A stretch of DNA of 64,000 bases from Candidatus Niyogibacteria bacterium (GTDB lineage Bacteria; Patescibacteriota; Minisyncoccia; HO2-45-28): the NCBI GenBank assembly GCA_016432485.1, contig CP066691.1:153294-217293 (forward strand). The letters are read 5' to 3'. The notes below the pieces were generated by a model. The model searched no databases and was not told the origin of the DNA. It worked only from the letters and a program-made list of their open reading frames with translations. Of this stretch, positions 17,829 to 63,852 are shown one piece after another; position 1 is the stretch's first letter; every line of letters starts with the position of its first letter. The translations under genes and the position numbers were made by a program.

Positions 17829-19064
17829 TTAAGCATTTTTAAAAAAAGACCGGCTCACAACGCTCGTATGGGTCATATTGGCAAACATAAACATCAGGGA
17901 AACCAAAGCCGCAATCACAAAACTGGATTTTAAAAACAAAACCGGTTCAAAAAAATACGCTCCGACCATTAATATCAGCATATAAGGGATGCGAACAGCA
18001 TTATACAAAAGTTCTCTGCTCAGAATAAATGACGCGCCGTCAGGAACGCTGCGCGCAATCCTATAATATTGGCTTTCCCAAGCCACACCGAGAGAATTGC
18101 CGACGGCATTTCCCAGCGGCTCGCTGATTGAAACCAAAACCGGGCGGAATAAAAAATAACGCGCGGCCCATATCGCCGACAGAAAAACTGAAGACCAAAG
18201 AATTATTTTTCTTCTTTTGCCGGCATCGGAAAGAAAACCCATATAAAAAGTGACGAAAACGCCGGCCAAAAGCCCCAAGGATATTATCGCGCCCAAACTC
18301 TCAATGCTGCCCAATATTATAAACAGGAAAAGCGGCCACGTTATTCTTCCGATTATGGTTTCCATGGCATATCCCGCGCCCGAGACGGTAAAAGGCATAA
18401 TCGGCTTGTAAAAAAGATATTTTATTATAGTTTTTCTTGATAAATCCGGCGAGGCTCTATGTGCCGGAAAATAAAAAAGCGGCGTTATCGCAAAAAACAA
18501 TAAAGCGGCTCCGAAAGCAAAAGTGTATTTAAACCCAATTGAGGCGATAATCAATCCGCCTAAAAAGGGCGCGGCCATATGCGTTAAAGAACTGATGAGA
18601 TGGCGCGCGCCGATTTCCCTGCCCAAATAATCGCCGTCCGATGCCCCGGTAAAATTAATATGATAACCGGTGTTAAAAAATATGGCGTAAGAAGCATGTA
18701 ACAAGGGAAGAAAATAAAATAACAAGGGGAGCTCTTTTATAAAATCAAGGCCCAAATAATAAAGCGCGGCGAAAGGAAGGCTCGCGAGCATCAATGTTTT
18801 ATCGCTTAGCCTGCGAAAAAACGGCAAAACAGCCAGAATAATGGCAACAATGTAGACCGAGTCCAGAAGAATAAATAAAAGGATGCGCCAAATCGGCTCG
18901 CCTTCCTTCCACAAAAACACCGGCACGAAAATACCGACAAGACCTATAGCAAAGCTCATCAATGCCAACGCCACATAAAGCGCGTCCATTTCTTTATTCC
19001 TAAAAAAAGAAAAATGCTCAAAAAGCGCGGAACTAATTTTCATATTTAACATAAATGTTAGCAC
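17829..19064 (-). CDS. Polytopic membrane transporter, MFS-like.
   Basis: 411 aa with about 12 predicted TM helices. No diagnostic catalytic motifs. Confidence 0.45.
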   Translation of the reverse strand: MLTFMLNMKISSALFEHFSFFRNKEMDALYVALALMSFAIGLVGIFVPVFLWKEGEPIWRILLFILLDSVYIVAIILAVLPFFRRLSDKTLMLASLPFAALYYLGLDFIKELPLLFYFLPLLHASYAIFFNTGYHINFTGASDGDYLGREIGARHLISSLTHMAAPFLGGLIIASIGFKYTFAFGAALLFFAITPLFYFPAHRASPDLSRKTIIKYLFYKPIMPFTVSGAGYAMETIIGRITWPLFLFIILGSIESLGAIISLGLLAGVFVTFYMGFLSDAGKRRKIILWSSVFLSAIWAARYFLFRPVLVSISEPLGNAVGNSLGVAWESQYYRIARSVPDGASFILSRELLYNAVRIPYMLILMVGAYFFEPVLFLKSSFVIAALVSLMFMFANMTHTSVVSRSFFKNA

Positions 19065-19399: not shown

Positions 19400-19410
19400 A
19401 CATTCCACTC

Positions 19411-19656
19411 CTACTTCCTGTGACACTTCTTATAATAATTGCCACGCGGATCGCCCAAATATTTGAATCGTGGCATCTTTTTACCATCAACTTCTACTTC
19501 CTCCAAAAACATTTTAAGCGGCCGCGCCCATAAGTCGAAATTTCCGTATAATGCTCGATAAATCACTAATTCTTCCAGCGTTTCGCTGTGCCGCGCAGTA
19601 CCTATAACCTCGTACTCTTTTCCTTTATAGTGCCTATATTTTCCTAACTTAATCAT
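19411..19656 (-). CDS. DUF1653 family small protein.
   Basis: 81 aa. [25 protein letters not shown] core. The C-terminal 15 aa (..[10 protein letters not shown]) are encoded by a copy of the secA-tail element. Confidence 0.6.
19414..19452 (-). repeat. secA-3'-end-like junction element, copy A' (GATCCGCGTGGCAATTATTATAAGAAGTGTCACAGG in transcript orientation). It forms the 3' end of the DUF1653 CDS.
   Basis: Alignable to the authentic secA terminus and to copy A. Confidence 0.6.
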
Positions 19657-19704
19657 ATTATTTCCCGTGACACCTTCGCTTTTTATTACCTAACCCACGC
19701 GGAT
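19657..19704 (-). repeat. secA-3'-end-like junction element, copy A (ATCCGCGTGGGTTAGGTAATAAAAAGCGAAGGTGTCACGGGAAAT). It lies between the P-loop kinase stop and the DUF1653 start.
   Basis: Shares CCGCGTGG...AAGTGTCAYGG with the other copies. Confidence 0.6.
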
Positions 19705-20214
19705 TTATTGTTTAATTTCTTTGAAAATCTCATCTGGCGACTTACCCGTGGCATCTATAATTTCTATACCTAATTCCCTTGCTTTCTGCTCGATTTCTTC
19801 GGCGTACTTTAGGGCATTCTCAAGCTGATAATCAGTCCGTCCCATCGGATTTTCTCTTGATTCATGGCGAAGATTCTCTGTAAGTACTTGTCGCTCTACT
19901 TTCAGAAAATACACCTTATCGAATAAATCGGTAACATTAAATACATTTCCCGATAATCCGAATAAATATATCTCGTCTTGCTTCCTTAGATAATCTTTCA
20001 GAAATTCCTTGTTCCAAAGAAATTCATGATTATTCAGAAATTCCTTATCGGCGTCTTCCGGATATTCAACTTCTTTTCCATCGTTATCGAACCAACTAGA
20101 TAAATCGAGAACTAAATCAGCATCAATAGCGTTAATCCCGCCCTTTCGTAACTCCGCCGAAATATACGTCTTTCCTGAGCCAGATGGACCAATTATTAGG
20201 ATTTTCTTTTTCAT
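19705..20214 (-). CDS. P-loop NTPase, small kinase-like (adenylate/shikimate-kinase fold).
   Basis: 169 aa. Walker A GPSGSGKT at the N-terminus. Confidence 0.5.
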   Translation of the reverse strand: MKKKILIIGPSGSGKTYISAELRKGGINAIDADLVLDLSSWFDNDGKEVEYPEDADKEFLNNHEFLWNKEFLKDYLRKQDEIYLFGLSGNVFNVTDLFDKVYFLKVERQVLTENLRHESRENPMGRTDYQLENALKYAEEIEQKARELGIEIIDATGKSPDEIFKEIKQ

Positions 20215-20416
20215 AAATATGCTCTTACGCTCCGTGACATCTTTTATATCCCAGCACTAGAACCTTACGGTTCAGTGCGGGACTGCGCTCGCGCAAGGTC
20301 GCTAATTGTATTCGCTTCGCTTGTTTCTTTCCCCTACAGACCTTTTCCATGGCAATGTTTAAATTTTTTTGGACGGCCGTCGACATTGGTCGCTCCGCAC
20401 GGGCAGGGGTCGTTGT
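20215..20416 (-). repeat. Composite junction element B. Its left half AACGACCCCTGCCCGTGCGGAGCGACC and right half AAAGATGTCACGGAGCGTAAGAG match the two halves of the secA terminus. They are separated by a GC-rich insert of about 150 nt.
   Basis: Direct comparison with 22087-22150. The plus-strand ORFs 20275..20481 and 20349..20720 lie on it and are probably spurious. Confidence 0.55.
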
Positions 20417-20611
20417 TTATTTTCTGCGAATTGGGGAGATACCGAGATCCTTGCAGATTTTTTCTGCAAGAAAATCGTTGATGTCGTTGTGGCGCGGAAC
20501 CGATGAGGTGCGTTGTGATACGGGATTAAGAAAAAGTGAGTGTTTTCTCCCTTCGCGAATCAAAAGACATTTATACTCACGCAAATATTTTAAGAGCGCA
20601 AGCCGCTTCAT
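20417..20611 (-). CDS. hicA: HicA-family mRNA interferase toxin.
   Basis: 64 aa. MKRLALLKYL..REGRKHSLF.NP...TSSVPRHNDINDFLAEKICKDLGI matches the HicA/YcfA pattern. Confidence 0.7.
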   Translation of the reverse strand: MKRLALLKYLREYKCLLIREGRKHSLFLNPVSQRTSSVPRHNDINDFLAEKICKDLGISPIRRK

Positions 20612-20616
20612 AGAAG

Positions 20617-20841
20617 CTATGCAGGAACGGCGATGCGTACTGCTTCTCGTTTGCTGTCCAACGCCTTTCCTGACGCAAGCGCGCGATTTACTTCCAAAAC
20701 CATCTGGAGTGCTTCTTTAAGATTTTCTTTAGCCTCCTTGAGCGACCGTCCTTGAGTATTAATGCCCGGAATTTCTTCAATCCACGCCACCGTCCACTTG
20801 CCGCGCTTTTGATATACCGCCGTAAATTCTCGTTTGTTCAT
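20617..20841 (-). CDS. hicB: HicB-family antitoxin.
   Basis: 74 aa. WTVAWIEEIPGINTQGRSLKEAKENLKEALQMVLE is the HicB/UPF0150 RNase-H-like fold signature. It sits immediately upstream of hicA. Confidence 0.7.
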   Translation of the reverse strand: MNKREFTAVYQKRGKWTVAWIEEIPGINTQGRSLKEAKENLKEALQMVLEVNRALASGKALDSKREAVRIAVPA

Positions 20842-20871
20842 AGTTTTAATATAACAAGATCCTTTGTTTTT

Positions 20872-20930
20872 GCAACCCTACGCTCCATGACACTTCTACA
20901 CTTTTAATACTGTCACGCAGGAGTTTTCTT
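20872..20930 (-). repeat. secA-3'-end-like junction element, copy C (GAAAACTCCTGCGTGACAGTATTAAAAGTGTAGAAGTGTCATGGAGCGTAGGG).
   Basis: Alignable over about 50 nt with the authentic secA 3' end. Confidence 0.6.
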
Positions 20931-20997
20931 TATTTTAAGGCACTTTTCTAACTTGCGAACTGTTGAATTTGCCTAAAAACAGAAAATGTCATGCGGA

Positions 20998-21672
20998 TTA
21001 CTTCTGATTAATTTCTGCTTCCTCAACGGCTATTAAATGCATTAGACGATTCAAGTAACTTTGTGCTTTCTCTTTTGATTTATCATCCGTAATTTTGCCG
21101 ATCGCGCTTTGCAGGGCAGTCTCATTAAAACACCTCTTCACTGCATCCTTCTCTATTTTCAGTGCTGGAAAATCTTCGAAGTATTTCAGCTTATCAGCCG
21201 TATCGTAAGCGAAGTTATCCGTGCCTTCATCGATAGCAATTCCTAGATTATGCAGATTCTGAATTAAATCATGTTCGTCATAATATTGGCGTTCCCTTGC
21301 TTGCTTTTCTAATTCTCGGAGTCGTCTTTCGTCCTCGTCTGACCATTCTGCTTTTACATAAATTTTTTGTAGTTCTGTATAAAGGTCATCCAGCTTAACT
21401 TTCTCTCTTACTACCGCATTGGGTTGAGACGAAGATAAATGAATATCCACAATATTTTCTGGAAGCAAGATGTGTAAAATCTTTGTCAGGTAATATCTCG
21501 CTTTTACTAACCCCGGTGACTCTGGATGCTTATATGCACCCAAAACCCGCTCAGGATGGTGACGACTTTGATAAACTTTCTTTTCCGCCCCCTCTCCTAT
21601 AGGTTCATGTGCATCAGAAATTAATTGTTCCCAGTTTTTCTTCATAGATATCCTAATTTTATCATCTCTCAT
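20998..21672 (-). CDS. Hypothetical protein of about 224 aa with an acidic coiled-coil C-terminal half.
   Basis: The ORF track start at 21684 is a GTG created by the junction element. The first ATG is at 21672. No recognisable domain. Confidence 0.5.
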   Translation of the reverse strand: MRDDKIRISMKKNWEQLISDAHEPIGEGAEKKVYQSRHHPERVLGAYKHPESPGLVKARYYLTKILHILLPENIVDIHLSSSQPNAVVREKVKLDDLYTELQKIYVKAEWSDEDERRLRELEKQARERQYYDEHDLIQNLHNLGIAIDEGTDNFAYDTADKLKYFEDFPALKIEKDAVKRCFNETALQSAIGKITDDKSKEKAQSYLNRLMHLIAVEEAEINQK

Positions 21673-21720
21673 GACCCATGACACTTCTACTGTTTACTGA
21701 CTAACCCGCAGGAGAATTTT
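21668..21720 (-). repeat. secA-3'-end-like junction element, copy D. It overlaps the Nudix stop codon and the next gene's start.
   Basis: CTCCTGCGGGTTAGTCAGTAAACAGTAGAAGTGTCATGGGTCATGAG in transcript orientation. Confidence 0.6.
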
Positions 21721-22086
21721 CAATCTATCTTTTATTTTTTCGTGCCAAAATTCGTATTTTTCAAGATCTTCTAACTTCAGCCAGTCATATTCTTGGTGTT
21801 CATGACTTAAGATAACATCAGGTGTATTTTCGACTCGACATAAGAAAGTAACAATATATGTTTCGCCGCTATCGCTCATGTCAACATTGAGAATGTCTTT
21901 CACCTCAAAATTCTCAATCCCAGTTTCTTCTTTAACTTCTCGTTTTAATCCTTGTAACCATCCTTCATCTTCTAATCTACCTCCTGGCAACATCCATTTA
22001 CCATCTTTTTGTAAAATCAGAATTTCCCCAGCATCGTTCTGGATAATCGCATTCTGATTTACTTTGAACAATTTATGATTTTCCAT
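21694..22086 (-). CDS. Nudix hydrolase.
   Basis: Nudix box GGRLEDEGWLQGLKREVKEETGI. The ORF track GTG start at 22107 lies inside the secA coding tail, so the first ATG (MENHK...) at 22086 is preferred. Confidence 0.7.
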   Translation of the reverse strand: MENHKLFKVNQNAIIQNDAGEILILQKDGKWMLPGGRLEDEGWLQGLKREVKEETGIENFEVKDILNVDMSDSGETYIVTFLCRVENTPDVILSHEHQEYDWLKLEDLEKYEFWHEKIKDRLKILLRVSQ

Positions 22087-22150
22087 GTTCCTCACGCCCC
22101 ATGACACTTTTTATATTTTTTACCAGATCCACACGGGCAGGGGTCGTTAC
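22087..22150 (-). repeat. Authentic secA 3' terminus, the prototype of the junction element. It encodes [18 protein letters not shown] plus the stop.
   Basis: AACGACCCCTGCCCGTGTGGATCTGGTAAAAAATATAAAAAGTGTCATGGGGCGTGA translates to the SecA zinc-binding tail. Confidence 0.7.
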
Positions 22151-24662
22151 GGCCCACTTTTCCAAATTGGCCCACGCTTTTAGCGTGGTCGCCAATTTGA
22201 GAACCCGCCGTAGCCTTGGCGAAGGCGGGTGCCGCGGCTTTGCCGTGGTCGCCAATTTGTTTGCCCGCTTCATTGTGGACGGTTTCCAAAATCATCTTTT
22301 CTTGTTTCGGAGCTTCCTCGCCTATTTTAAGAGCGATATCAGCCACATGATTTTCAATGGCGTCCTCAAGTTCGTGAAAAAGGCGCGCGGCTTCATTTTT
22401 ATATTCCACCAGCGGATCGCGCTGACCGTAAGCGCGAAGTCCGACTGAAGAACGCATATATTCCATAATTTCCAGATGCTCAATCCAAAAATGATCTATG
22501 GTCTGCAGCCATAAAAATTTAAGAGATAAGGCCAGTTTATCTTTATCGGCTTCGCGCGCTTTTTGCGTAAATTTTACTTTTTCGGCTTCATCCAAAAAAA
22601 GCTCTTTAGTTCGCGCGAAAATATCTTCCGGTCCGGCAAACAATGATTCGCTTCTTTTGCGATAAATCGCCGCGCGATGCTTATTCATCACATCATCGTA
22701 TTCCAAAAGATGTTTCCGGGCGTCAAAATTAAAACCCTCCACTTTGGCCTGCGCCGATTCAAGCGACCTAGAGACCAGTTTGTTCTCAATCGCCTCGTCT
22801 TCCGGTATGCCGAAGGTCTTCATCATATTTTTAATGCGTTCCGACCCGAATATGCGCAGCAGATTATCGTCAAAAGACACGAAAAACTGGGTTTCTCCCG
22901 GATCGCCTTGTCTTCCTGAACGACCTCTTAACTGATTATCAATCCTGCGAGCGTCATGGCGTTCGGTGCCCAAGACGAACAGCCCCCCGACTTCGCGTAT
23001 TTTAGCCGCTTTCTCCGTATCAGACGGATTGCCGCCCAAAACAATGTCAACGCCGCGACCCGCCATATTGGTGGCGACGGTCACCGCGCCAACTCGTCCG
23101 GCTTGAGCGATAATCTCTCCCTCTCGTTCATGATTTTTGGCGTTTAACATCTCGTGATTAATTCCTTCTTTTTTTAAAAGCGCTGAAATGTGTTCATTTT
23201 TTTCAATTGAAGCCGTTCCGAGAAGAATCGGCTGCCCACTCTCATGCCGATTTTTTACTTCGCGAATCACCGCCTGCCATTTTCCGGATTCGGTGGCAAA
23301 AATTTTATCCGAGAGGTCTTTTCTAATCAACGGTTTATTGGTCGGGATAACCGCGACTTCCAAATTATAGACCTTGCCGAACTCTTCGGCCGAAGTAACC
23401 GCGGTTCCGGTCATTCCGGAAAGTTTTTTATAAAGCCGGAAATAATTCTGAAAAGTAATTGAAGCGACTGTCCGCGATTCTTTTTGAATCGGCGCTCTTT
23501 CTTTGGCTTCAACGGCCTGATGCAGACCTTCTGACCAACGGCGTCCCGGCATAAGACGCCCCGTAAACTCGTCAACAATTATCACCTCGCCGTTTTTCAC
23601 CACATAATCCTTATCAAGTTTATAGAGCGCTTTAGCCCGCAGGGCCTGCTCCATATGATGGACATATTTCACTCCTCCTTCGGCATAAATATTTTTTATT
23701 CCCAGCGTCTTTTCTACCCGACTTATACCTTCTTCGGTTATGGAGGAAGCGCGCATTTTTTCATCAATCGTATAATCGCGCCCTTCCCGGAGCCCTTCAA
23801 CGACTTGGGCGAAAAGCCGGTAAAGCTCGCCCGATTCCGAATCGGGCGCCGAAATTATCAAAGGAGTGCGCGATTCGTCAATTAAAATGGAGTCCACTTC
23901 GTCAACGATGGCAAAATTATGCCCCCGCTGGCTCATTTGCTCGGGGCTATAGGCCAAATTGTCCCGCAAATAGTCAAATCCGAATTCATTGTTAGTGCCG
24001 TAAGTTATGTCGGCTCTATAGGCCTCTTTTCTTGAACACGGCCGCAGATATTCATGAACAACCTTAAACGCTCCAAGAGTATCGCGGGTTTCGTCTTTGG
24101 TTATTGTTTCTTGGTTATTGGTTATTTTTGAATTTTGAAAATTCGGGTCATAAATAAAACTTTGTTCGTGGTTGATGCACCCCACGCTCATCCCAAGCAA
24201 ATGATATATCTGCCCCATCCAAACGGCATCGCGGCGCGCCAGATAATCATTGACTGTAACAATATGCACTCCCTTTCCGGCAAGCGCGTTTAAATAGGCG
24301 GGAAGTGTGGCCACAAGGGTTTTGCCTTCTCCTGTTTTCATCTCGGCGATGCGCCCTTGATGCAAAATAATTCCGCCCAAAAGCTGAACGTCAAAATGAC
24401 GCTGCCCCAAGGTTCGTTTGGCTGATTCGCGAACGAGCGCGAAGGCATCTGCCAAAATCTCTTGAAGAGATTTTGGCAACCCCGAGCCTGTCGAGGGGCG
24501 GCTTTTTATGGCGCTTCTTAACTCCTCGGTTTTTGCGCCCAGTTCTTCGTCCGAAAGTTTTTCAAATTCCGGCTCAAGCGAATTTATTTTTGAAATCAAT
24601 GGCTTTAATTTAGCCAAAAAGCGGGCGTTGGAATCGCCTAATATTTTTGAAAAAAAAGTCAT
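22092..24662 (-). CDS. secA: Preprotein translocase ATPase SecA.
   Basis: 856 aa. DEAD-like motor motifs, preprotein cross-linking domain and a C-terminal [14 protein letters not shown] zinc finger. The tail contains an internal duplication of about 55 nt (gtggtcgccaatttg occurs twice). Confidence 0.95.
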
Positions 24663-53282: not shown

Positions 53283-54035
53283 TTACTTAAAAAGCAGGGC
53301 GGCGCCTAGAGAGGCGGCGTGGTTGCCGAGGCGGGATTTTAATATTTTGGCTTTAATGCCGTTTTTTGTGAGTTCCTTTTTTAATTTTGAGATGAAATTT
53401 TTCCTTTTCATTATCACTCCCCCGCCTATAATTATTGCCCGCGGTTTATATGGCTTGATGAGTTTTGCCAAATTCTTGCCTAAAAATTCGGCTAGTTTCA
53501 TATCGTCTTTTCTATCTCTAATTTTTTGATACTCACCCTCCCAACGCTCCGGATATTCAAATTTTTTGATTTTTAAAATTTTTCCGTTTCTGCCGGAGGC
53601 CCGGCCGATTCCCGTGCCAATGGTCAGAAAAAAAAGGTTTTTAAATCCGCGCCCGAAACCTAACAAATATTCCCCTCTGGCAAAACAGCGCGCGTCGTTA
53701 TCAAGTTTTAATTGAATTCCCGTCGGGATTATTTTTTGAAAATTAAAATTTTTAACCGCGGGGATATTGGGGCTAAAACGTAAAACCGCGCCGTTAACCA
53801 CTCCGGCTGTCCCGATGCCGATGCCCGATATTTTTTCGGCGCGCGCCAGAAACTTTACCGTTATACGCAGGACTTTTCCAAAATCCACCAGATTTTGCGG
53901 TGTTTTTACCTCGCGCTTTCTGATTATTTTTCCATCCCTATACAAAATCCCGCGAATATTCGTCCCGCCGATATCCAGACCGATTATTCGCGGCGGTTTG
54001 CGCGTTGAATTGCTTTTTTTTACTATTTCAATCAA
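53283..54035 (-). CDS. ROK-family sugar kinase (glucokinase-like).
   Basis: 250 aa. IIGLDIGGTNIRG phosphate-1 motif and GTGIG. Confidence 0.75.
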   Translation of the reverse strand: MIEIVKKSNSTRKPPRIIGLDIGGTNIRGILYRDGKIIRKREVKTPQNLVDFGKVLRITVKFLARAEKISGIGIGTAGVVNGAVLRFSPNIPAVKNFNFQKIIPTGIQLKLDNDARCFARGEYLLGFGRGFKNLFFLTIGTGIGRASGRNGKILKIKKFEYPERWEGEYQKIRDRKDDMKLAEFLGKNLAKLIKPYKPRAIIIGGGVIMKRKNFISKLKKELTKNGIKAKILKSRLGNHAASLGAALLFK

Positions 54036-54595
54036 AAAATAATAATGCTAACCACCGTAAAATAAACAAGCAGACTTATTAAATCCTGAATGATGGTTGC
54101 CACGGGCCCCGAGCCCAAAGCCGGATCAGAATGTCTTTTGTATAAAACGCTTGGAATAATCACGGCCAAAATCGGAGCCAGCGAAAGATTGATCAAAAAG
54201 GTCAGTCCTATGACAAATCCAATCGCGGAAGATTTAAGCCAATACGCGGCAAAAACCGCTAAAATCAAGCCGAAAATAATGCCGAGGCCGACGCCGACTA
54301 CGCTTTCTTTAAAAATGTAAGTCCAGAAACGGGTTTTTTTGAACGTAAGCGCCCGCACATAAATAGTTTCGGTCTGCGTGCCCACGGCATCGCTTAGATA
54401 CACGATAACCGGAATGAAAAAAGCGAGCCTTACATCGGCCGAAAGAATGGCTTCGTATTTAGAAATAATCAGCGTGGCAAGAATTCCGCCCAAAAGCCCG
54501 ACAAAAAGCCATGGAACACGGCGTTCAATCAAATGCTCTACGGATTCTTTGGTGTCGTCTTCGGCCACATACTCTTTTTTTGGCTGTATCTCCAT
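54032..54595 (-). CDS. MgtE-like divalent cation transporter, membrane domain only.
   Basis: 187 aa. PWLFVGLLGG and C-terminal HSDPALGSGPVATIIQD motifs of the MgtE TM domain. Confidence 0.6.
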   Translation of the reverse strand: MEIQPKKEYVAEDDTKESVEHLIERRVPWLFVGLLGGILATLIISKYEAILSADVRLAFFIPVIVYLSDAVGTQTETIYVRALTFKKTRFWTYIFKESVVGVGLGIIFGLILAVFAAYWLKSSAIGFVIGLTFLINLSLAPILAVIIPSVLYKRHSDPALGSGPVATIIQDLISLLVYFTVVSIIIF

Positions 54596-54613
54596 ACGTT
54601 AAATATACCATAT

Positions 54614-55117
54614 TCAATGCCGGATAATTATTATCTGGCGCAAAACCATGTCTTCAGGTTTGGTTATGGAGACGCCAGGAAAATCAAACCAGACGCGAAG
54701 GAAATCATCGCGCGAAACCGCGCGCGGGCCGCCGATCTCAGGGTCCTGCAGATAAATTTTATCGGCATCTAATCCCACAACCACGGAGTAATGCCCGTCA
54801 GGCATCTCGGAATCCGGATAATCCCTGCGGCCGGGCGTGAACCAATCCACGATAACCGGAACTTTTTTTTCCAACCATGATTTAATTTCAAAAAAATCAG
54901 ATTCATTTTTTACCTCGGCATCAAAACCGTATTTACGCGCAACCTCAGCCATAGTTTCGGAGGAAACCCCTAATTTCGAATCACGACCACAAGCTTCAGC
55001 AAGCTCAATCTCACTTTTTTCAAGGCCGTAATAATTAAAAACCATCTTCAAACTGGCCGGACCGCAATACCCGCCGCCGAGAGTTTCTTGAAACGGCTTT
55101 ACCGGAAGAAGTTCCAT
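54614..55117 (-). CDS. Peptidase C39-like (papain-fold) domain protein.
   Basis: 167 aa. The putative catalytic Cys lies in GYCGPASLKMV and the His in GHYSVVVGLD. Confidence 0.5.
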   Translation of the reverse strand: MELLPVKPFQETLGGGYCGPASLKMVFNYYGLEKSEIELAEACGRDSKLGVSSETMAEVARKYGFDAEVKNESDFFEIKSWLEKKVPVIVDWFTPGRRDYPDSEMPDGHYSVVVGLDADKIYLQDPEIGGPRAVSRDDFLRVWFDFPGVSITKPEDMVLRQIIIIRH

Positions 55118-55161
55118 ATTTTATCCATTCTAATATCTTGCCCGCCTTCCGGCAAGCAAAA

Positions 55162-55689
55162 TCACAAAATAGATGATTGATAAAAAATCTTCACCAATTT
55201 CGGTAAATCGCCTTTTGTTTTTTCGCCGTTAGAAATGCGTTCAAAAAGCGCCTTCGGCGTCAGCCAAAAATATTCCGTAAAATCATTTTTGTTGTAGTTC
55301 GGCGTTTCGTCCATTTTAATTTCATATACTTTCATATATGCCGAAACTCCGTCTTTTCGCGGAGTTAAATGTCCCAGTAAATGGATAACGGCCTTATCAA
55401 CGTCAATATTCAGTTCCTCCCGCAATTCGCGTTTAAACGCGTCCTCGTAGCTCTCCCCGCTTTCAACATGTCCGCCCATGCTCATATCCAAACACAAAGG
55501 ATAGATTCTTTTATCGGCGGCGCGCCGAGGTATCCATATTTCCCCTTTTGAATTTACAATAAAAACATTCACCACTCGGAAATTTGAAAGACCATCGGCG
55601 TAGACTTCCGAACGTTTCTTTTTGCCGACAACATTATCGTTTTCGTCAACAAGGTCCAAATATTCGTCTAAAGTGTGTTCAAGGGTCAT
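55162..55689 (-). CDS. Nudix hydrolase (IPP-isomerase-like subfamily possible).
   Basis: Nudix box GGHVESGESYEDAFKRELREELNID. The ATG at about 55689 is preferred over the ORF track's TTG at 55710. Confidence 0.7.
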   Translation of the reverse strand: MTLEHTLDEYLDLVDENDNVVGKKKRSEVYADGLSNFRVVNVFIVNSKGEIWIPRRAADKRIYPLCLDMSMGGHVESGESYEDAFKRELREELNIDVDKAVIHLLGHLTPRKDGVSAYMKVYEIKMDETPNYNKNDFTEYFWLTPKALFERISNGEKTKGDLPKLVKIFYQSSIL

Positions 55690-55711
55690 AAAAGTATTCC
55701 GCGCCTTCAAA

Positions 55712-55879
55712 TCATCTTCTTTTTGGTTTCCAGTCGGCGATTATTATCTTTTTGCCTTGGCGGGTGATAACGAGTTTTTGTTTTTCGCGAATTTTCAATT
55801 CATCGGCAATTTCCGCAGGAATCACGACCGACAAACTCCGCTTCCCGACCCTCGTCACCTTTCTGACATATTTTTTCAT
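55712..55879 (-). CDS. AbrB/MazE/SpoVT-type swapped-hairpin DNA-binding protein of 55 aa. A candidate transcriptional regulator or antitoxin.
   Basis: MKKYVRKVTRVGKRSLSVVIPAEIADELKIREKQKLVITRQGKKIIIADWKPKRR. It is below the 60-aa ORF-track cut-off. RBS AAGGAT upstream. Confidence 0.5.
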   Translation of the reverse strand: MKKYVRKVTRVGKRSLSVVIPAEIADELKIREKQKLVITRQGKKIIIADWKPKRR

Positions 55880-55930
55880 ATCCTTATTATGCTACGCAGC
55901 ATATTACGCAGCAAGGTTTATGCGACATAC
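55880..55930 (-). promoter_or_regulatory. Promoter/operator element, copy 1. It has -35 TTGCTG, direct repeats TGCTGCGTA x2 in the spacer, -10 CATAAT and the RBS AAGGAT.
   Basis: 46/50 identical to 57582-57632. Confidence 0.55.
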
Positions 55931-56020
55931 TAGCAAAAATTTTTTCTAGTTCCCGCAAATAGTAATTTTCATATTTTTATTTTAATACTTTGATGCCCCT
56001 CGGGCTGCAAATTTATATTT

Positions 56021-56563
56021 CTATAATACATACTCCCAGCCTGGTTTCCAGGATTTTGTTTTTCGCCAATCTTCGGCGAACGCCTCATCCCATGTTTTAT
56101 TTTTAAGCAAAACTTCAAGGGCAAGCTGCGGGGCTTTATGCGAAACTAAGGCGACGCTTTTGCCGTCGTAATTTTGTTTTAAAAATTCAAGAAAATCGGC
56201 AACGCGCGTTTTTACATCCTCGTAGCTTTCGCCATCGGGAAATTTTTCGATTATCATTTTTTCTTGCATCGGCTCGACAATTTCAGACGAGTGGCCGTTA
56301 AACTTGCCGTAATTGCACTCGCGCAATCTTTGGTCGGGGATAATTGGCGCCACTCCTTCAAAAACTAGTTTTGCGGAGTCAACTGCTCGTCTCAGGTCGG
56401 AGCAAAAGACAACATCAAATTTTTTGTCTTTGATTTGGTTTTTTAATTCAATGGATTGTTTTACACCAAGCTCCGAAAGTCCGACGTCAGACCACCCGGA
56501 CGAGATTCCTTTCTCGTTATCCGTAGTCGTTCCGTGTACGAAATAAGTTATTTTGATTGGCAT
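56021..56563 (-). CDS. Histidine phosphatase superfamily (PGAM-like) protein.
   Basis: 180 aa. The N-terminal ITYFVHGTT aligns with the RHG motif region, although the Arg is replaced. Confidence 0.45.
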   Translation of the reverse strand: MPIKITYFVHGTTTDNEKGISSGWSDVGLSELGVKQSIELKNQIKDKKFDVVFCSDLRRAVDSAKLVFEGVAPIIPDQRLRECNYGKFNGHSSEIVEPMQEKMIIEKFPDGESYEDVKTRVADFLEFLKQNYDGKSVALVSHKAPQLALEVLLKNKTWDEAFAEDWRKTKSWKPGWEYVL

Positions 56564-57000
56564 TATTTATTAAACTCAATATATTCTTTAACCCCCCTCA
56601 GCCAGCCTCCTTTGAAAAATTCTTCGGGTTTAAAATTGTTTGGGTCAACCCAAAGCAATTCCGAGTGTCTTTCCGAAGTTTTGACTTCGCCACTTTTCAA
56701 TTCACTCTCATAACCGATGGCAAATATTCTAACGGTGGGATTGCCCGGCGCATGTTCGACTCTTTCATGCCTCATAAAAATGATCGGCTCGCCGATAGTG
56801 TATTTGATGTCTTTACCCAGCTCCTCCGTCATTTTGCGTTCGATAATTTCATCCAAAGGTGTTTCGAACTCGTCTTTTTTGATTCGTCCTCCGGGCAAAT
56901 CCCAGTCGCCAAAGCTATCTTTAAGTATTAAAAGTTTGCCGTCTTTTTTCAAAAAAACTTTTACCGCCACAAAATATTTTTCTTTTTCTTCTGTATCCAT
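56563..57000 (-). CDS. Nudix hydrolase.
   Basis: 145 aa. Nudix box GGRIKKDEFETPLDEIIERKMTEELG. Confidence 0.75.
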   Translation of the reverse strand: MDTEEKEKYFVAVKVFLKKDGKLLILKDSFGDWDLPGGRIKKDEFETPLDEIIERKMTEELGKDIKYTIGEPIIFMRHERVEHAPGNPTVRIFAIGYESELKSGEVKTSERHSELLWVDPNNFKPEEFFKGGWLRGVKEYIEFNK

Positions 57001-57011
57001 GTTCCGAAAAA

Positions 57012-57581
57012 TTACTTTGATAAATCCTCAATGGTTTGGATCACCTCGGGAAGTTCTAGACAGGGTTTTTCGCCTTCAATCGCGCCGGAAAAATGGCCCA
57101 TTTTGTGTTTGATTATGATTTTCGCGCCGAGTTTTTCTTTGAGAATGTCTGCGTATTTCAAATCAACATGCGGATCGTTGTCGGAATGAATCACCACAAA
57201 GCCGTTTTTAGAGTTTGATTTTACTTTTTCAAAATCAATCGGCGTCTCAAAAAAGTTTTTGATTTCGTCGTAACCCAAATCCTCGGTAAATCCGGCGACA
57301 AAGACCACGCCGCCCACTCTTTGGTTTTCGCGCAAAGTTTCCAAATAGCGCATTATTGTAACACATCCGACGCTGTGGCCTATGAGAAATAGGTTTTCGT
57401 CAGGTTGCCCTATTTCTTCAGAAAGGAACGGGACCCACGCGTTTTGCTTTGGGTGTTCGGTGTCGGGGAACGCCGGAATTTTCACTTCAAATCCTTTGGA
57501 TTCAAGTTCTTTTTTTACTGACGGATACCAGCAATAGTCTGGTGTCCCCTCCCAACAATGGACTATAATTACTCTTTTCAT
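57012..57581 (-). CDS. Alpha/beta hydrolase of the YdeN/RBBP9 serine-hydrolase family.
   Basis: 189 aa. Nucleophile elbow GHSVG and a His near the C-terminus. Confidence 0.6.
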   Translation of the reverse strand: MKRVIIVHCWEGTPDYCWYPSVKKELESKGFEVKIPAFPDTEHPKQNAWVPFLSEEIGQPDENLFLIGHSVGCVTIMRYLETLRENQRVGGVVFVAGFTEDLGYDEIKNFFETPIDFEKVKSNSKNGFVVIHSDNDPHVDLKYADILKEKLGAKIIIKHKMGHFSGAIEGEKPCLELPEVIQTIEDLSK

Positions 57582-57632
57582 ATCCTTATTATGTTACGCA
57601 GCACATTACGCAGCAGGGTTTTGCTTTATTAA
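57582..57632 (-). promoter_or_regulatory. Promoter/operator element, copy 2 (same TGCTGCGTA direct repeats).
   Basis: tttcatatccttattatgttacgcagcacattacgcagcagggtttt compared with copy 1. Confidence 0.55.
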
Positions 57633-57744
57633 TCAGCCTCGTCAACAGCCTTAATCCATTCTAGTATTTTGCAAAATTACAAAATTATTTTATTTTAGCG
57701 CTTTGATCCGAAAAAACTACATAAGCAAGAGCTGTTTTACGACT

Positions 57745-58377
57745 TCATTTATTAAATCCAGAAACCGCGGAAACTATATCAGACGGCTCTTTTACATGGA
57801 TTTTATGCGGCCGTTCTCTATGGTAACCCCAGCCGTATTCAACTAAAATGACATTTTTAATTCCTGCCTCATCTGCTATATCAGCATCTATGTCTCTGTC
57901 TCCAATATAAATAACCCCCTCCTTGCCCAGCCCAAGATCTAATAATACGTTAATTATAGCTTCGCTTTTCTGGAAAGGTATTCCCACATTTTTTCCTATA
58001 ATTTTTTTAAAATAATGGGTTAACTTATATTTATCAAATTTCTGTTTAACTTCCTCTATTAAATTATTCGTGGCTAAAATCAAAATGTATTTGGAGCTAA
58101 GTTTTTCTAAAACTTCCGGTACTCCTTCATATAATTTTGGCTCTTTTTTCAAAATCAATTCAGCAAACATTATTCTCGCTCTTTCTATATCTTTTTCAGA
58201 AAACCCCAAATTTTTATAAGTCTCTTTTGCGCTATAACCATATATTTTTTTGAAATCTTCTAAAGAATCGGGGCAAACTGCCCCAACTTCTCTACAAATC
58301 TCCTGGTATATTTCATGTACCGTTCCGAACGAATCCACTATCACGCCGTCATAGTCAAAAATTATAGCTTTTATCAT
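57745..58377 (-). CDS. HAD-superfamily phosphatase (phosphoglycolate phosphatase-like).
   Basis: 210 aa. Motif I IIFDYDGVIVDS and motif IV GDRDIDADIADEAG. Confidence 0.8.
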   Translation of the reverse strand: MIKAIIFDYDGVIVDSFGTVHEIYQEICREVGAVCPDSLEDFKKIYGYSAKETYKNLGFSEKDIERARIMFAELILKKEPKLYEGVPEVLEKLSSKYILILATNNLIEEVKQKFDKYKLTHYFKKIIGKNVGIPFQKSEAIINVLLDLGLGKEGVIYIGDRDIDADIADEAGIKNVILVEYGWGYHRERPHKIHVKEPSDIVSAVSGFNK

Positions 58378-58380
58378 TTA

Positions 58381-58830
58381 TTAAAAACTTTTATATTTAT
58401 CCGTATTTAATAGTCGTTTGATTTCTTTACTGATTTCTGAAATATCGTCTTCGTTCAAAGGCGGCAGGGCGGGCTGTACCAAAAATTCTTCTTTAGTTGC
58501 CGGAAAATTTAACGGAGCGCCGTATTTTTGTATCGGAGCATTTTTTGCTCTTCCATAGAGATGTATGTGCAACAGGTGAGTCCAGTTTCCATTGTCTTGA
58601 TAGTTAATTCTCCCTATTTCAATACCTCTGGAGGAAAGCGCGGTTTTCATTGCTTCTCCTGCAACCATAGTCAATTTCATTAATTCCACAGCATGTTCGG
58701 GGGAAAGCTTGGTTCTATCCTCAACTTCTGTCTTGGGAATGATAATTATATGTCCGCCGTCAGCGCGGGAAATATGCGGACGCTCCGGAACAATTATATT
58801 AAAGCTTTTAGACTCAAAAACTAACGGCAT
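58381..58830 (-). CDS. HIT-family (histidine triad) nucleotide hydrolase/transferase.
   Basis: 149 aa. HLLHIHLYG HxHxH-type triad. Confidence 0.7.
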   Translation of the reverse strand: MPLVFESKSFNIIVPERPHISRADGGHIIIIPKTEVEDRTKLSPEHAVELMKLTMVAGEAMKTALSSRGIEIGRINYQDNGNWTHLLHIHLYGRAKNAPIQKYGAPLNFPATKEEFLVQPALPPLNEDDISEISKEIKRLLNTDKYKSF

Positions 58831-58832
58831 AA

Positions 58833-58878
58833 CAAAAATCCTAGCACAAAATCACGCTTTTTGCGAGCGCGGATTTTT
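58833..58878 (-). promoter_or_regulatory. Repeated upstream element R2, copy 1 (extended -10 TGCTAGGAT). The ATG lies about 9 nt after the -10, so this is likely a leaderless or near-leaderless transcript.
   Basis: caaaaatcctagcacaaaatcacgctttttgcgagcgcggattttt. Confidence 0.5.
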
Positions 58879-58896
58879 GTCTTTATCCCTTGAGGA

Positions 58897-59325
58897 TTAT
58901 TTTTTCTGTTCTTTCAGCTCAATTTCTTCTTTCGTGAAATCAAACTTTACACCGAAAATATCAAAAAATCCCTTTTGCCCAAGAATACCAAAGCCGTGTT
59001 GTGCGATGTCGTAGGAAAATCCAACTGTCGTTTTATAGCCCCAACCGCCAACATTAATAACAATATTGTGCAGAAACGCCTCAGATCCTCCCTTATCTTG
59101 GATGCCGCCAAAGACCTCCTTGATGCCAGAACGCACATTTATCCCTAAGTACTCTCCAACCTCTCCGTCAAATATACAAAAGTCGGCCCCAGAATCTATA
59201 AGGGCTGCATACTTTAATTCCTTATTCTGAAAAGAAATTTTAATAGGAATTATTGGTTTTAACAAAGAGTGGCCGAAAAAGTCAGATTTTTTCGTAAGAG
59301 GAAATTTATGATATCTAAACTTCAT
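58897..59325 (-). CDS. Retropepsin-like (clan AA) aspartic protease.
   Basis: 142 aa. Catalytic ALIDSGAD motif. Confidence 0.6.
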   Translation of the reverse strand: MKFRYHKFPLTKKSDFFGHSLLKPIIPIKISFQNKELKYAALIDSGADFCIFDGEVGEYLGINVRSGIKEVFGGIQDKGGSEAFLHNIVINVGGWGYKTTVGFSYDIAQHGFGILGQKGFFDIFGVKFDFTKEEIELKEQKK

Positions 59326-59522
59326 AAATCCGAACTGCCGACATAAGGAACGATCTTTGTCGGCATACGCATCATAATCGGTTTTTCGTGCCCATTTTCT
59401 TGGGCTTTTTCAAGGGCCTCTTTAAGAGTTTTTCCACTGCCAACAACCGTTTTTTCATCGTCTAACAAGGCCACCCACAGGCCCTTGTATTTTTCATATA
59501 TTTTAGTCCAATCAATAGTCAT
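59322..59522 (-). CDS. DUF5678-family small protein.
   Basis: MTIDWTKIYEKYKGLWVALLDDEKTVVGSGKTLKEALEKA matches the DUF5678 pattern. The start is taken at the internal ATG. The ORF track's 59588 start is a GTG inside the R2 repeat. Confidence 0.5.
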   Translation of the reverse strand: MTIDWTKIYEKYKGLWVALLDDEKTVVGSGKTLKEALEKAQENGHEKPIMMRMPTKIVPYVGSSDL

Positions 59523-59572
59523 ATATTTGAATATTATCAAGATCCAACCATAAAAACAAGACAGTCTATTTA

Positions 59573-59618
59573 TTAAAAATCCTAGCACAAAATTACGCTT
59601 TTTGCGAGCGGGAATTTG
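59573..59618 (-). promoter_or_regulatory. Repeated upstream element R2, copy 2.
   Basis: ttaaaaatcctagcacaaaattacgctttttgcgagcgggaattt. About 40/45 identical to copy 1. Confidence 0.5.
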
Positions 59619-59630
59619 GGTAGTAATTTT

Positions 59631-60068
59631 TTAGTCATCCGAGCCGATATCCGATAAGTTGACCATGTACGTTTTTATGAACTTCTCAATTGCGCTGACG
59701 GCCTCGGCTTTATATTTCGGACCGCTTTCGGCCACCCATTTCGCGAAATTATAAAACTCAACGTCGTCAACTTTAATCCATTTGTTATTTTTATAAAGAA
59801 AAGTCATTAATGCAGTCATGGCTATTCTTTTGTTGCCGTTCTTAAACGGATGATTTTTAATCATTAAGTAAAAAAGAATTGAAGCCTTACCAATCAGGCC
59901 TTTGTAAGCGCTTTTTCCGCCGAACGAATGGAATGGCATAGCCAAGCAGCTTTCAAGAACATTCGGGAAGCGGGTGCCAAAATCGGGAATCGGCTCGTTC
60001 CATTTCATCCATTCGCGGGCAAGTTTATGCGCCACGTATTCAACTTCTTGCGCAGTTAGCCCTCTCAT
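59631..60068 (-). CDS. doc: Doc/Fic-family toxin.
   Basis: 145 aa. Fic motif variant HPFKNGNKR (HxFx[DN][AG]NKR), characteristic of Doc. Confidence 0.7.
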   Translation of the reverse strand: MRGLTAQEVEYVAHKLAREWMKWNEPIPDFGTRFPNVLESCLAMPFHSFGGKSAYKGLIGKASILFYLMIKNHPFKNGNKRIAMTALMTFLYKNNKWIKVDDVEFYNFAKWVAESGPKYKAEAVSAIEKFIKTYMVNLSDIGSDD

Positions 60069-60328
60069 TCTTTTCCAAGCAAACGCAAAGTCTCACCGTA
60101 TTCTTTGACGGTCTTTCTGATGGCTTTATCAATAAGCTCTTTTTTTGAGGCAGTAAGCTCTCCACCGGCCTCAACCGGCAAATCTTTTCGGCCCACGACG
60201 TAATTTTTGCCTATTTTTTTGGCTTTTATCTCGCCGGACATGATTTTCTTCAGTACGGCTTGACGGCTTACACCCAAGGTTTTAGCCACCTCGACGGTGG
60301 AAAAGGTCTTTTTGCCCATATAAATCAA
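60065..60328 (-). CDS. Helix-turn-helix (excisionase/MerR-like) DNA-binding protein, putative antitoxin partner of Doc.
   Basis: 87 aa. FSTVEVAKTLGVSRQAVLKKI HTH. 4-nt overlap with doc. Confidence 0.55.
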   Translation of the reverse strand: MIYMGKKTFSTVEVAKTLGVSRQAVLKKIMSGEIKAKKIGKNYVVGRKDLPVEAGGELTASKKELIDKAIRKTVKEYGETLRLLGKE

Positions 60329-60334
60329 TGATAT

Positions 60335-63773: not shown

Positions 63774-63846
63774 CCGCCCATAGCTCAATTGGTAGAGCAG
63801 CTCCCTTTTAAGGAGAAGGTTCCAGGTTCGATTCCTGGTGGGCGGA
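63774..63846 (+). tRNA. tRNA-Lys (anticodon TTT).
   Basis: Cloverleaf checked by hand. It has a 7-bp acceptor stem CCGCCCA/TGGGCGG, D-stem GCTC/GAGC, anticodon loop CTTTTAA and T-arm CCAGG-TTCGATT-CCTGG. There is one mismatch in the anticodon stem and no encoded CCA. Confidence 0.85.
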
Positions 63847-63852
63847 CTTAAA

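Follow-up and report, generated by a model that had tools for sequence, protein, structure and literature searches.

Tandem accretion of integrative elements at the 3′ end of a conserved gene is known from tRNA and tmRNA islands and from the tycheposons of Prochlorococcus; in staphylococci, the staphylococcal cassette chromosome (SCC) elements insert at the 3′ end of rlmH (orfX); and Xer-dependent mobile elements include the integrative mobile elements exploiting Xer (IMEXs) such as CTX and TLC, at dif, and the pdif modules on Acinetobacter plasmids. Here we describe an array of small genes behind secA in a Candidatus Niyogibacteria bacterium, a member of the Patescibacteria (candidate phyla radiation, CPR), bacteria with tiny genomes for which little is known about the gain of accessory genes or about phage integration sites. 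The window, that is, the whole stretch of DNA that was analysed (64,000 nt; GenBank assembly GCA_016432485.1, contig CP066691.1, positions 153,294 to 217,293 of the forward strand), carries five co-oriented modules on the secA strand (a Nudix gene, a hypothetical gene, a hicBA-like pair, a P-loop kinase-like gene and a DUF1653 gene), with copies of the secA tail at their boundaries (Table 1); translation shows this tail to code for the SEC-C zinc finger, the final 20 codons of secA. We consider it likely that the array is the product of insertions at the secA tail, which would serve as an attachment (att) site. An initial annotation, made from the sequence alone, had taken the tail for an att-like insertion hotspot; comparison with other genomes largely backs this proposal, and we infer, rather than observe, that each single-gene cassette was inserted independently. 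A literature search found no secA integration site, no secA–DUF1653 linkage and no CPR cassette arrays, in keeping with the view that the mechanism had not been described.

Tail copies and integrases at the secA 3′ end

Six elements related to the secA tail had been placed on the minus (secA) strand at boundaries between same-strand genes, and all six were confirmed at those positions. The core AARTGTCAYGGRGCGTRAG, searched with up to three mismatches, has four matches in the 64 kb, all within the array on the secA strand, compared with 0.06 expected from shuffled sequence. An nhmmer profile that drew solely on intact secA tails from other genomes, and was thus independent of the window, avoids circularity; run over both strands of the whole window, it recovered the secA tail itself (22154-22091, E 1.9e-19), further copies at 20415-20347 (E 3e-5), 19445-19410 (E 3e-3), 21713-21667 (E 5e-3) and 20904-20877 (E 1e-2), and two weaker ones at 20249-20223 (E 0.1) and 19702-19663 (E 1.3), the best score outside the array being no better than E 0.04. 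When the profile is broadened to take in cassette-type copies, all six elements are recovered, among them copy 5 (19657-19704), which is weak alone and is conserved in the relative L111. The copies do not diverge progressively with distance from secA, as had been supposed, the left half of copy 4 being the second-best copy. The junctions are spanned by Logan contigs of independent runs that match the window at 100% identity (L105, 22123-20273; L084, 22140-20854; L085, 20297-15638), and the array is therefore no assembly artefact. Breaks in Logan contigs cluster at junction elements, and in at least 7 runs they fall within the GC-rich spacer of the window, at 20273 and 20297; the breaks were considered as evidence of strain variation and set aside, since k-mers common to other species in the samples could also explain them.

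The survey was extended to both strands of 1.49 Mb of secA loci, comprising 80 GTDB species, 16 metagenome contigs and the window, and all significant matches lie on the secA strand. The 80 GTDB loci came from a full-SecA scan whose best match was 60% identical, with no close relative, and were used as a negative control; in these the tail occurs at secA only, save for a second tail-like match in L003 (5550-5598, E 4e-5) and a chance-level match in L012. Beyond the secA tail itself, copies are confined to the 3 kb that follow secA, and were seen in the window and in eight metagenome loci (L089, L091, L096, L100, L101, L103, and L093 and L098, the last two having the same sequence). The 16 metagenome loci were picked through an exact 27-mer, AAAAAATATAAAAAGTGTCATGGGGCG, and are thus an ascertained sample; their secA genes are only 64-69% identical to that of the window. 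Behind the secA genes of L093, L100 and L101, which end in a long-loop finger, the 27-mer falls in non-coding sequence, so that coding constraint cannot account for its exact conservation there.

These distributions bear on whether the copies could be a functional repeat of an ordinary secA operon, kept as an intercistronic leader, as an mRNA processing site or as a needed SEC-C-like C-terminus. The motif is absent from the other genes of the window, about 60 in number, in the control loci it belongs to secA itself, and a syntenic relative does without the array; moreover, the copies are conserved as DNA and not as protein, being frameshifted, placed past stops or deprived of their cysteines. 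Against these observations stand the right arms, which end a few nucleotides upstream of start codons with GAGG-like or AGGA-like motifs, the absence of any intrinsic terminator on the secA strand within the array, and the intact SEC-C motifs that some cassette proteins carry elsewhere. No Rfam family matches the array, and its folds are not stable; we judge a functional repeat to be highly improbable, and the common leader that the initial annotation had named as the contrary case is not what was found in the window. Promoter-like sites in the array are at chance level. An attC-like hairpin model was also rejected: 23 junction elements, folded as single-stranded DNA on both strands, gave minimum free energies of 0 to -9.4 kcal/mol with z-scores mostly between -2 and +1.7, no more stable than shuffles, and only the element of about 127 nt behind the hypothetical gene was modestly so (z -2.3).

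Sites of the attB, attL and attR kinds with a linked integrase, together with a probable attP, are present in related genomes and phage contigs. In two strains of the well-sampled P0010 species (L124 and L130), a prophage end with an endolysin gene and a tyrosine integrase gene (382/423 aa) replaces the secA tail immediately upstream of DUF1653. A third locus of the species (L123), in which secA is followed directly by DUF1653, represents the unoccupied site; it is 99.6% identical to L124 from TATAAGAAGTGCCACGGGAAATAACATG onward and unrelated leftward, which places the breakpoint in the finger loop. The integrase is Xer-like: the XerA, XerD and XerC models give it 120-130 bits, in each case under the cut-off. 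It matches the PHROG 1 integrase (E 9e-37), and its score with the integron-integrase model TIGR02249 is 51 bits where the cut-off is 265. IMG/VR contigs contain this integrase as well as relatives of it at 66-79% identity. In three of these contigs the last secA codons stand at one end and, 39-50 kb away at the other, the integrase precedes a tail-like attR; AAGAAAT and GAAGAAATATAAGAAGTG are the cores (7-18 nt) common to their attL and attR copies. The integrase gene lies 290-450 nt from a tail-like site in L124, L130 and the uncultivated virus genomes L133, L135, L136 and L137, and the phage element codes for a tail fibre protein and an endolysin. A tyrosine recombinase linked to a copy, which the initial annotation had suggested looking for, was thus found in related genomes and phage contigs, at the prophage end opposite the secA tail.

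In L133, a cassette of the glyoxalase family (VOC) and a dCMP deaminase gene lie past attR, together with a cassette-type element. In L137, the order is integrase, AAGCCACGTGGCTGTGGAAAGAAGTATAAGAAATGCCACGGGACATAG, terminator, and AAA_24 and RepO-like replication genes, an order that fits an attP tail mimic in an apparently unintegrated phage. The junction elements of the window resemble the phage P arm more than secA, in that they have a single CCTGYGG (secA has CCCTGCCCGTGYGG) and a TAGAAG before the TGTCAYGG core, which is what serial attP × attL events would leave. Many viral contigs in IMG/VR (L142-L165) encode SEC-C motifs within or at the end of open reading frames (ORFs), unrelated to this integrase family. 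Scans of viral sequences with the 21-nt direct repeat of the window (Table 1) and with the core of its 127-nt element gave no matches.

The short cores of 7-18 nt between otherwise different arms, with integrase-linked prophages exactly in the site, are the signature of site-specific recombination and argue against integrase-independent homologous recombination, in which tail DNA would be a portable homology anchor for RecA-mediated Campbell-type integration, gene conversion or swap, with unequal crossing-over. Exact identities of 27-35 nt between species, switch points at several positions of the tail, the absence of a recombinase among the window ORFs scanned and the lack of stable secondary structure in the junction elements would all suit such exchange; the cassette-type elements, however, are too diverged from secA for it (often with less than 15 nt of contiguous identity) and yet keep two arm motifs, and the elements occur in one orientation and only behind secA. 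Taken together, these observations make exchange by RecA alone improbable, and the att-site explanation is retained below.

Empty, occupied and variable sites in relatives

The initial annotation had asked whether secA is directly followed by the transporter gene of the MFS family in related genomes. The P0125 lineage (16 contigs; SecA 76% identical) provides an empty site, with no array, in a syntenic setting, with the gene order S30AE, AdoMet_dc, secA, MFS, Fpg, EF-P, GatB, MiaA. Between secA and the MFS orthologue (52% amino acid identity; L113) lie 52 nt and an 81-aa ORF, unrelated and oppositely oriented. In a closer relative, variation was found inside the tail itself: in L112 (GCA_964574495.1; SecA 97% identical), the tail ..TGGATCTGGTAAAAAATATAA switches after ..AAAAAATATAA to a different right arm, GCGATGTCACGGGCAATGAGG.., giving ..KRCHGQ and a stop; about 95 nt and a gap of 10 N later, the window-type TGGATCTGGTAAAAAATATAAAAAGTGTCATGGGGCGTGAGGAAC and Nudix gene resume at 98.4% identity. 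This structure represents either an extra unit ahead of the Nudix gene or two haplotypes joined by scaffolding, and in either case the variation starts inside the tail. Similarly, P0123 and P0125 hardly differ as far as NDPCPCG, and exactly from there on they have different finger types.

Copy 4 had been described as a tail split by a 150-nt GC-rich insert and is actually a complete, different SEC-C finger (20414-20334), behind which come a spacer and then a short right half (GYKRCHGA, then a stop). This long-loop type ends the live secA in the relatives P0125, P0130, P0131, P0133, L093, L100 and L101, and in the last three a long finger, a spacer of tens of nucleotides and a short half-tail follow one another behind secA as they do at 20219-20414 in the window. 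The GC-rich spacers between long-loop finger and half-tail in the window, L093, L100 and L101 have a common (A)GCGGAGYC motif.

Differing cassette sets bounded by the same element, about which the initial annotation had also asked, were seen in other Patescibacteria. DUF1653 with its 3′ element recurs in L103, where similarity ends at the core on both sides; the element at the DUF1653 3′ end is kept in both L103 and L123, and similarity ceases directly past the core. A Nudix homologue (77% amino acid identity) with a decayed 3′ element directly follows secA in Ca. Paceibacter (L166), where identity to the window is 77.7% over the tail and the Nudix gene together, compared with 67% over secA. 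The element of about 127 nt has nucleotide matches of 75-77% behind different genes in L091 (around 1203-1335) and L103 (around 1661-1813), both in secA-forward orientation, and DUF5674 genes occur in two arrays (L092 and L103). The same element-encoded peptide ends unrelated genes, the window Nudix gene with ..LLRVSQ and an ASCH gene in L100 with ..LLRASQ, each before a stop, and three cassette proteins of unrelated families have in-frame SEC-C motifs or tails, as expected if displaced secA tails sometimes fuse to cargo. The cargo had been called typical of defence or stress islands; across arrays it consists mostly of small housekeeping-type enzymes (Nudix, glyoxalase/VOC, GNAT, ASCH, C39-like peptidase and cytidylyltransferase, besides DUF5674), and only the Nudix protein matches a candidate PADLOC model.

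The recurrence of single-gene units with att-core boundaries and different neighbours (Nudix and DUF1653 with their 3′ elements, and the 127-nt element) also speaks against the idea that the modules were never independently mobile and are debris of larger elements, cargo left beside att scars when a prophage or island was lost by internal deletion. That idea draws on the full-size prophages of 39-50 kb that use the site, on stuttered half-sites in L089 and L112 and on the G+C content of the hicBA block, which differs from its neighbours. No phage gene fragments, however, lie between the junctions, and the cassettes of L133 stand outside the prophage, past attR; we therefore hold this origin to be rather unlikely, albeit the least unlikely of the alternatives to insertion. 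Stuttered right half-sites, 18-50 nt apart, occur behind secA or between cassettes (L089, 154/206 and 962/980; L112, 4690-4730) and may be scars of repeated integration and excision.

DUF1653 is not a recent arrival among the cargo, since it commonly adjoins secA, an arrangement that is probably ancestral. Identity among DUF1653 proteins is 80-95% across Patescibacteria, and in the P0010 species (genome contigs of about 1.06-1.09 Mb) the gene begins 1 nt past the secA stop; in the window it is displaced 2.4 kb from secA. Many DUF1653 gene calls bear N-terminal extensions (for example, MTLAHAEAVKNIKN..) that are frameshifted readings of a full SEC-C tail upstream. The distal element had been credited with the last 15 codons of the window gene; it gives about 8 extra codons (YYKKCHRK before the stop), homologues usually ending in ..GDPRGN. 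In contig 7 of GCA_964574495.1 (L111), the segment with DUF1653 and the neighbouring 48-aa ORF is joined directly to the murA side (window 19696-19090, 9144-1), skipping a 10 kb block of the window (MFS, fpg, efp, gatB, miaA, proS and the gene of a 1196-aa protein); identity to the window is 97% for the DUF1653 segment and 82% for murA-mreB, which hints at a recent exchange or rearrangement.

A proposed history of the array

In the mechanism that we propose, the approximately 60 bp coding for the SEC-C finger at the secA 3′ end would be the attB of tyrosine integrases of an Xer-like kind, which temperate phages or integrative elements bring into Patescibacteria. Incoming DNA would bring its own tail mimic (attP), and the crossover would fall in the finger loop, around ..AAAAAR|TATAAR.., so that a working secA finger is rebuilt from the host left arm and the right arm of the element (attL), while the original right arm is displaced to the opposite end of the inserted DNA (attR). 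With insertions recurring beside secA and the displaced copies decaying afterwards, each boundary would be left with a hybrid att remnant, where right arms may supply the ribosome-binding region of the next gene and left arms the last codons and stop of the previous one. In the window, 21-nt repeats (20/21 identical; 22128-22148 and 20394-20414) bracket a 1.7 kb block made up of a short right arm, the Nudix gene, the 224-aa gene and hicBA, and secA is intact. The simplest history is that a long-finger secA end was once followed by the kinase gene and DUF1653, and that the proximal block was inserted into the finger, bringing the short right arm. We infer that the integrase family described above, acting in trans, made the array of the window, and the modules that lack an integrase would have entered singly as attP-like circles rather than as leftovers of larger elements.

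Several observations weigh against this explanation. The apparent switch points vary, falling after CPCG, after AAATATAA or after TGTCAYGG; they are compatible with one crossover between similar arms, short of proving it, and with RecA exchange as well. No integrase was found among the 10 candidate ORFs of the window that were scanned, nor in its Pfam-annotated flanks, most other ORFs being unscanned, and tblastn with the phage integrase returned no homologue in the window or in any locus of its own lineage; the integrase-bearing prophages come from species with SecA only about 62% identical to that of the window. Neither a circular cassette nor a precise empty site within the same strain was found, the 10-N scaffold gap of L112 could reflect joined haplotypes and not a tandem structure, and the frequency of arrays is not estimable from the 16 metagenome loci, selected as they were by the 27-mer.

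A more far-reaching form of the att-site explanation is that the array represents trans-mobilized, integron-like capture without a dedicated integron, in which single-gene circles with tail mimics are inserted, excised and reshuffled by phage Xer-like integrases. We put this forward tentatively, as a possibility that falls somewhat short of even chances. If true, a site read as codons would graft SEC-C tails or short C-termini onto unrelated proteins, and this could be how SEC-C motifs came to be scattered.

Table 1. Features of the secA locus and its array (window coordinates)
Feature	Coordinates	Strand	Description	Evidence
secA	22092..24662	-	856 aa; target gene	ORF list; SecA and SEC-C Pfam domains recorded for identical protein
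Present secA tail	22088..22152	-	attL-like, with putative host left arm and imported right arm; contains 27-mer AAAAAATATAAAAAGTGTCATGGGGCG	
Left copy of 21-nt direct repeat, AACGACCCCTGCCCGTGYGGA	22128..22148	-	95% identity to 20394-20414	Repeat search
Cassette 1, Nudix hydrolase	21694..22086	-	130 aa	PF00293, E 5.7e-18
Junction element 2, ctcctgcgggttagtcagtaaacagtagaagTGTCATGGgtcatgag	21665..21719	-	Cassette type	nhmmer, E 5e-3 (independent profile), 9.8e-9 (full profile)
Cassette 2, hypothetical protein	20998..21672	-	224 aa from ATG at 21672	ORF list
Conserved element of ~127 nt	20872..20998	-	3′ of cassette 2; includes junction element 3 (20872-20934)	
Cassette 3, hicBA-like pair	20417..20841	-	hicB-like 20617-20841; hicA-like 20417-20611	Weak Pfam matches
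Putative fossil secA end	20334..20414	-	Complete long-loop SEC-C finger, NDPCPCGATNVDGRPKKFKHCHGKGL, then stop	Translation; nhmmer, E 3e-5
GC-rich spacer and short right half-tail	20219..20333	-	Spacer 20252-20333; half-tail 20219-20251 (..GYKRCHGA, then stop)	
Cassette 4, P-loop kinase-like	19705..20214	-	169 aa	PF13238 AAA_18, E 1.5e-8
Junction element 5, atccgcgtgggttaggtaataaaaagcgaaggTGTCACGGgaaataatATG	19655..19705	-		nhmmer, E 1.8e-6 (full profile), 1.3 (independent profile)
DUF1653 gene	19411..19656	-	81 aa	PF07866, E 1.1e-32, residues 5-65
Junction element 6, gatccgcgtggcaattattataagaagTGTCACAGgaagtagg	19405..19470	-	Distal array end; gives DUF1653 its YYKKCHRK end and stop	nhmmer, E 3e-3
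MFS transporter gene	17829..19064	-	Conserved flank past array	PF07690

Within the array, the final codons of the Nudix gene come from its junction element. The start of cassette 2 is set by gene callers at 21645, giving 215 aa, as also on the Logan contigs, and its protein has no match in Pfam, NCBIfam or PADLOC; the artefactual GTG starts noted earlier at 21684 and 22107 are present in the ORF list. The left end of the 127-nt element, CCGCATGACATTTTCT, is an inverted repeat of its right core, AGAAGTGTCATGG, so that its ends look like terminal inverted repeats; it may serve as an extended arm-type binding region or specify a small RNA, and its three homologues are too few for a covariation test. 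The hicB-like and hicA-like genes match UPF0150 (E 2e-4; 21.6 bits, below the cut-off of 27.3) and HicA_toxin (E 1.3e-4; 22.4 bits, below the cut-off of 27), with no PADLOC or NCBIfam match for the pair, and the G+C content of this cassette (0.46-0.49) is above that of the neighbouring cassettes. The fossil finger starts 2 nt past the hicA stop and opens with the right copy of the 21-nt repeat; the adjoining spacer occurs once in the window and is not a dispersed repeat. The right part of junction element 5, CACGGGAAATAAYATG, is the usual junction of secA tail and DUF1653. Past DUF1653, a convergent 48-aa ORF with a strong hairpin precedes the MFS transporter gene.

Two features of secA itself were also recorded. 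The internal duplication reported for its tail exists, as an in-frame repeat of 37 nt (22172-22208 and 22232-22268; 76% identity) that codes twice for QIGDH(G/A)K directly upstream of the zinc finger; the spacing is 60 nt, not 55. Near the N-terminus, the window SecA and that of the 97% relative (compared with P0121) differ by a replaced block at residues of about 46-70 (window positions of about 24450-24530; KLAADSGELEPVLT in one version); elsewhere the two are nearly identical. No tRNA gene lies near the array. A second run of small accessory genes was noted on the minus strand at 54000-60330, a few kilobases from tRNA-Lys (63774-63847), with Nudix-like, HAD-like and HIT-like ORFs and a Fic/DOC gene (59631-60068) with its HTH_17 partner (60065-60328); it has no secA-tail motif.

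Implications and likeness to known systems

The locus suggests a defined hotspot inside an essential gene that receives both full prophages and single-gene modules. Such a hotspot is easily found by sequence, as a secA tail followed by tail-like repeats, and could be used to catalogue the flexible genes and temperate phages of these uncultured bacteria; it may also account for the assembly breaks that recur behind secA and for GTG starts wrongly called there. The pairing of recombinase and att site might be turned into a genetic tool for these bacteria, which have hardly any. Should the cassettes be individually mobile, the array would represent an independent, phage-driven route to an integron-like architecture, with a coding att site that reshapes protein C-termini.

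Among the known systems, tRNA and tmRNA islands and tycheposons are alike in using a tyrosine integrase and an attP copy of the gene 3′ end that rebuilds the gene, in the displaced partial copy that marks the far boundary, and in forming arrays with decaying copies and cargo without an integrase. The present locus differs from these 3′-end-targeting systems in its target, the protein-coding zinc finger of secA and not an RNA gene, in its Patescibacteria hosts, in units the size of single genes (0.3-0.8 kb), and in att arms that are read as codons, as stops, C-terminal peptides and some whole SEC-C tails. SCC elements share the conserved protein-coding 3′ end, the flanking direct repeats with the gene end, composite arrays and some units without a recombinase; they differ in their large serine recombinases (Ccr), lengths of tens of kilobases and repeats of 15-18 bp, whereas in the present case an Xer-like recombinase is carried by phages, each unit is of one gene and the repeat takes in the whole finger of 55-60 nt. 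IMEXs and pdif modules are likewise small modules without a recombinase, toxin–antitoxin pairs among them, bounded by sites, arranged in tandem at one chromosomal site and served by an Xer-type recombinase; here, by contrast, inspection reveals no dif-like palindrome of 28 bp, all sites are in direct orientation, and the only linked recombinase found is phage-encoded and is not the XerC/D of the host, whose Xer genes lie outside the window. The analogy with integron arrays, drawn in the initial annotation, fails structurally, given that there is no adjacent intI, no attC-like hairpin and no RYYYAAC/GTTRRRY cores and that the anchor lies inside an essential gene; nevertheless, the two have in common same-strand, mostly promoterless single-gene cassettes, a 3′ recombination element that overlaps the ORF end, growth apparently at the anchor-site end and a recombinase in the Xer/IntI branch of the tyrosine recombinases.

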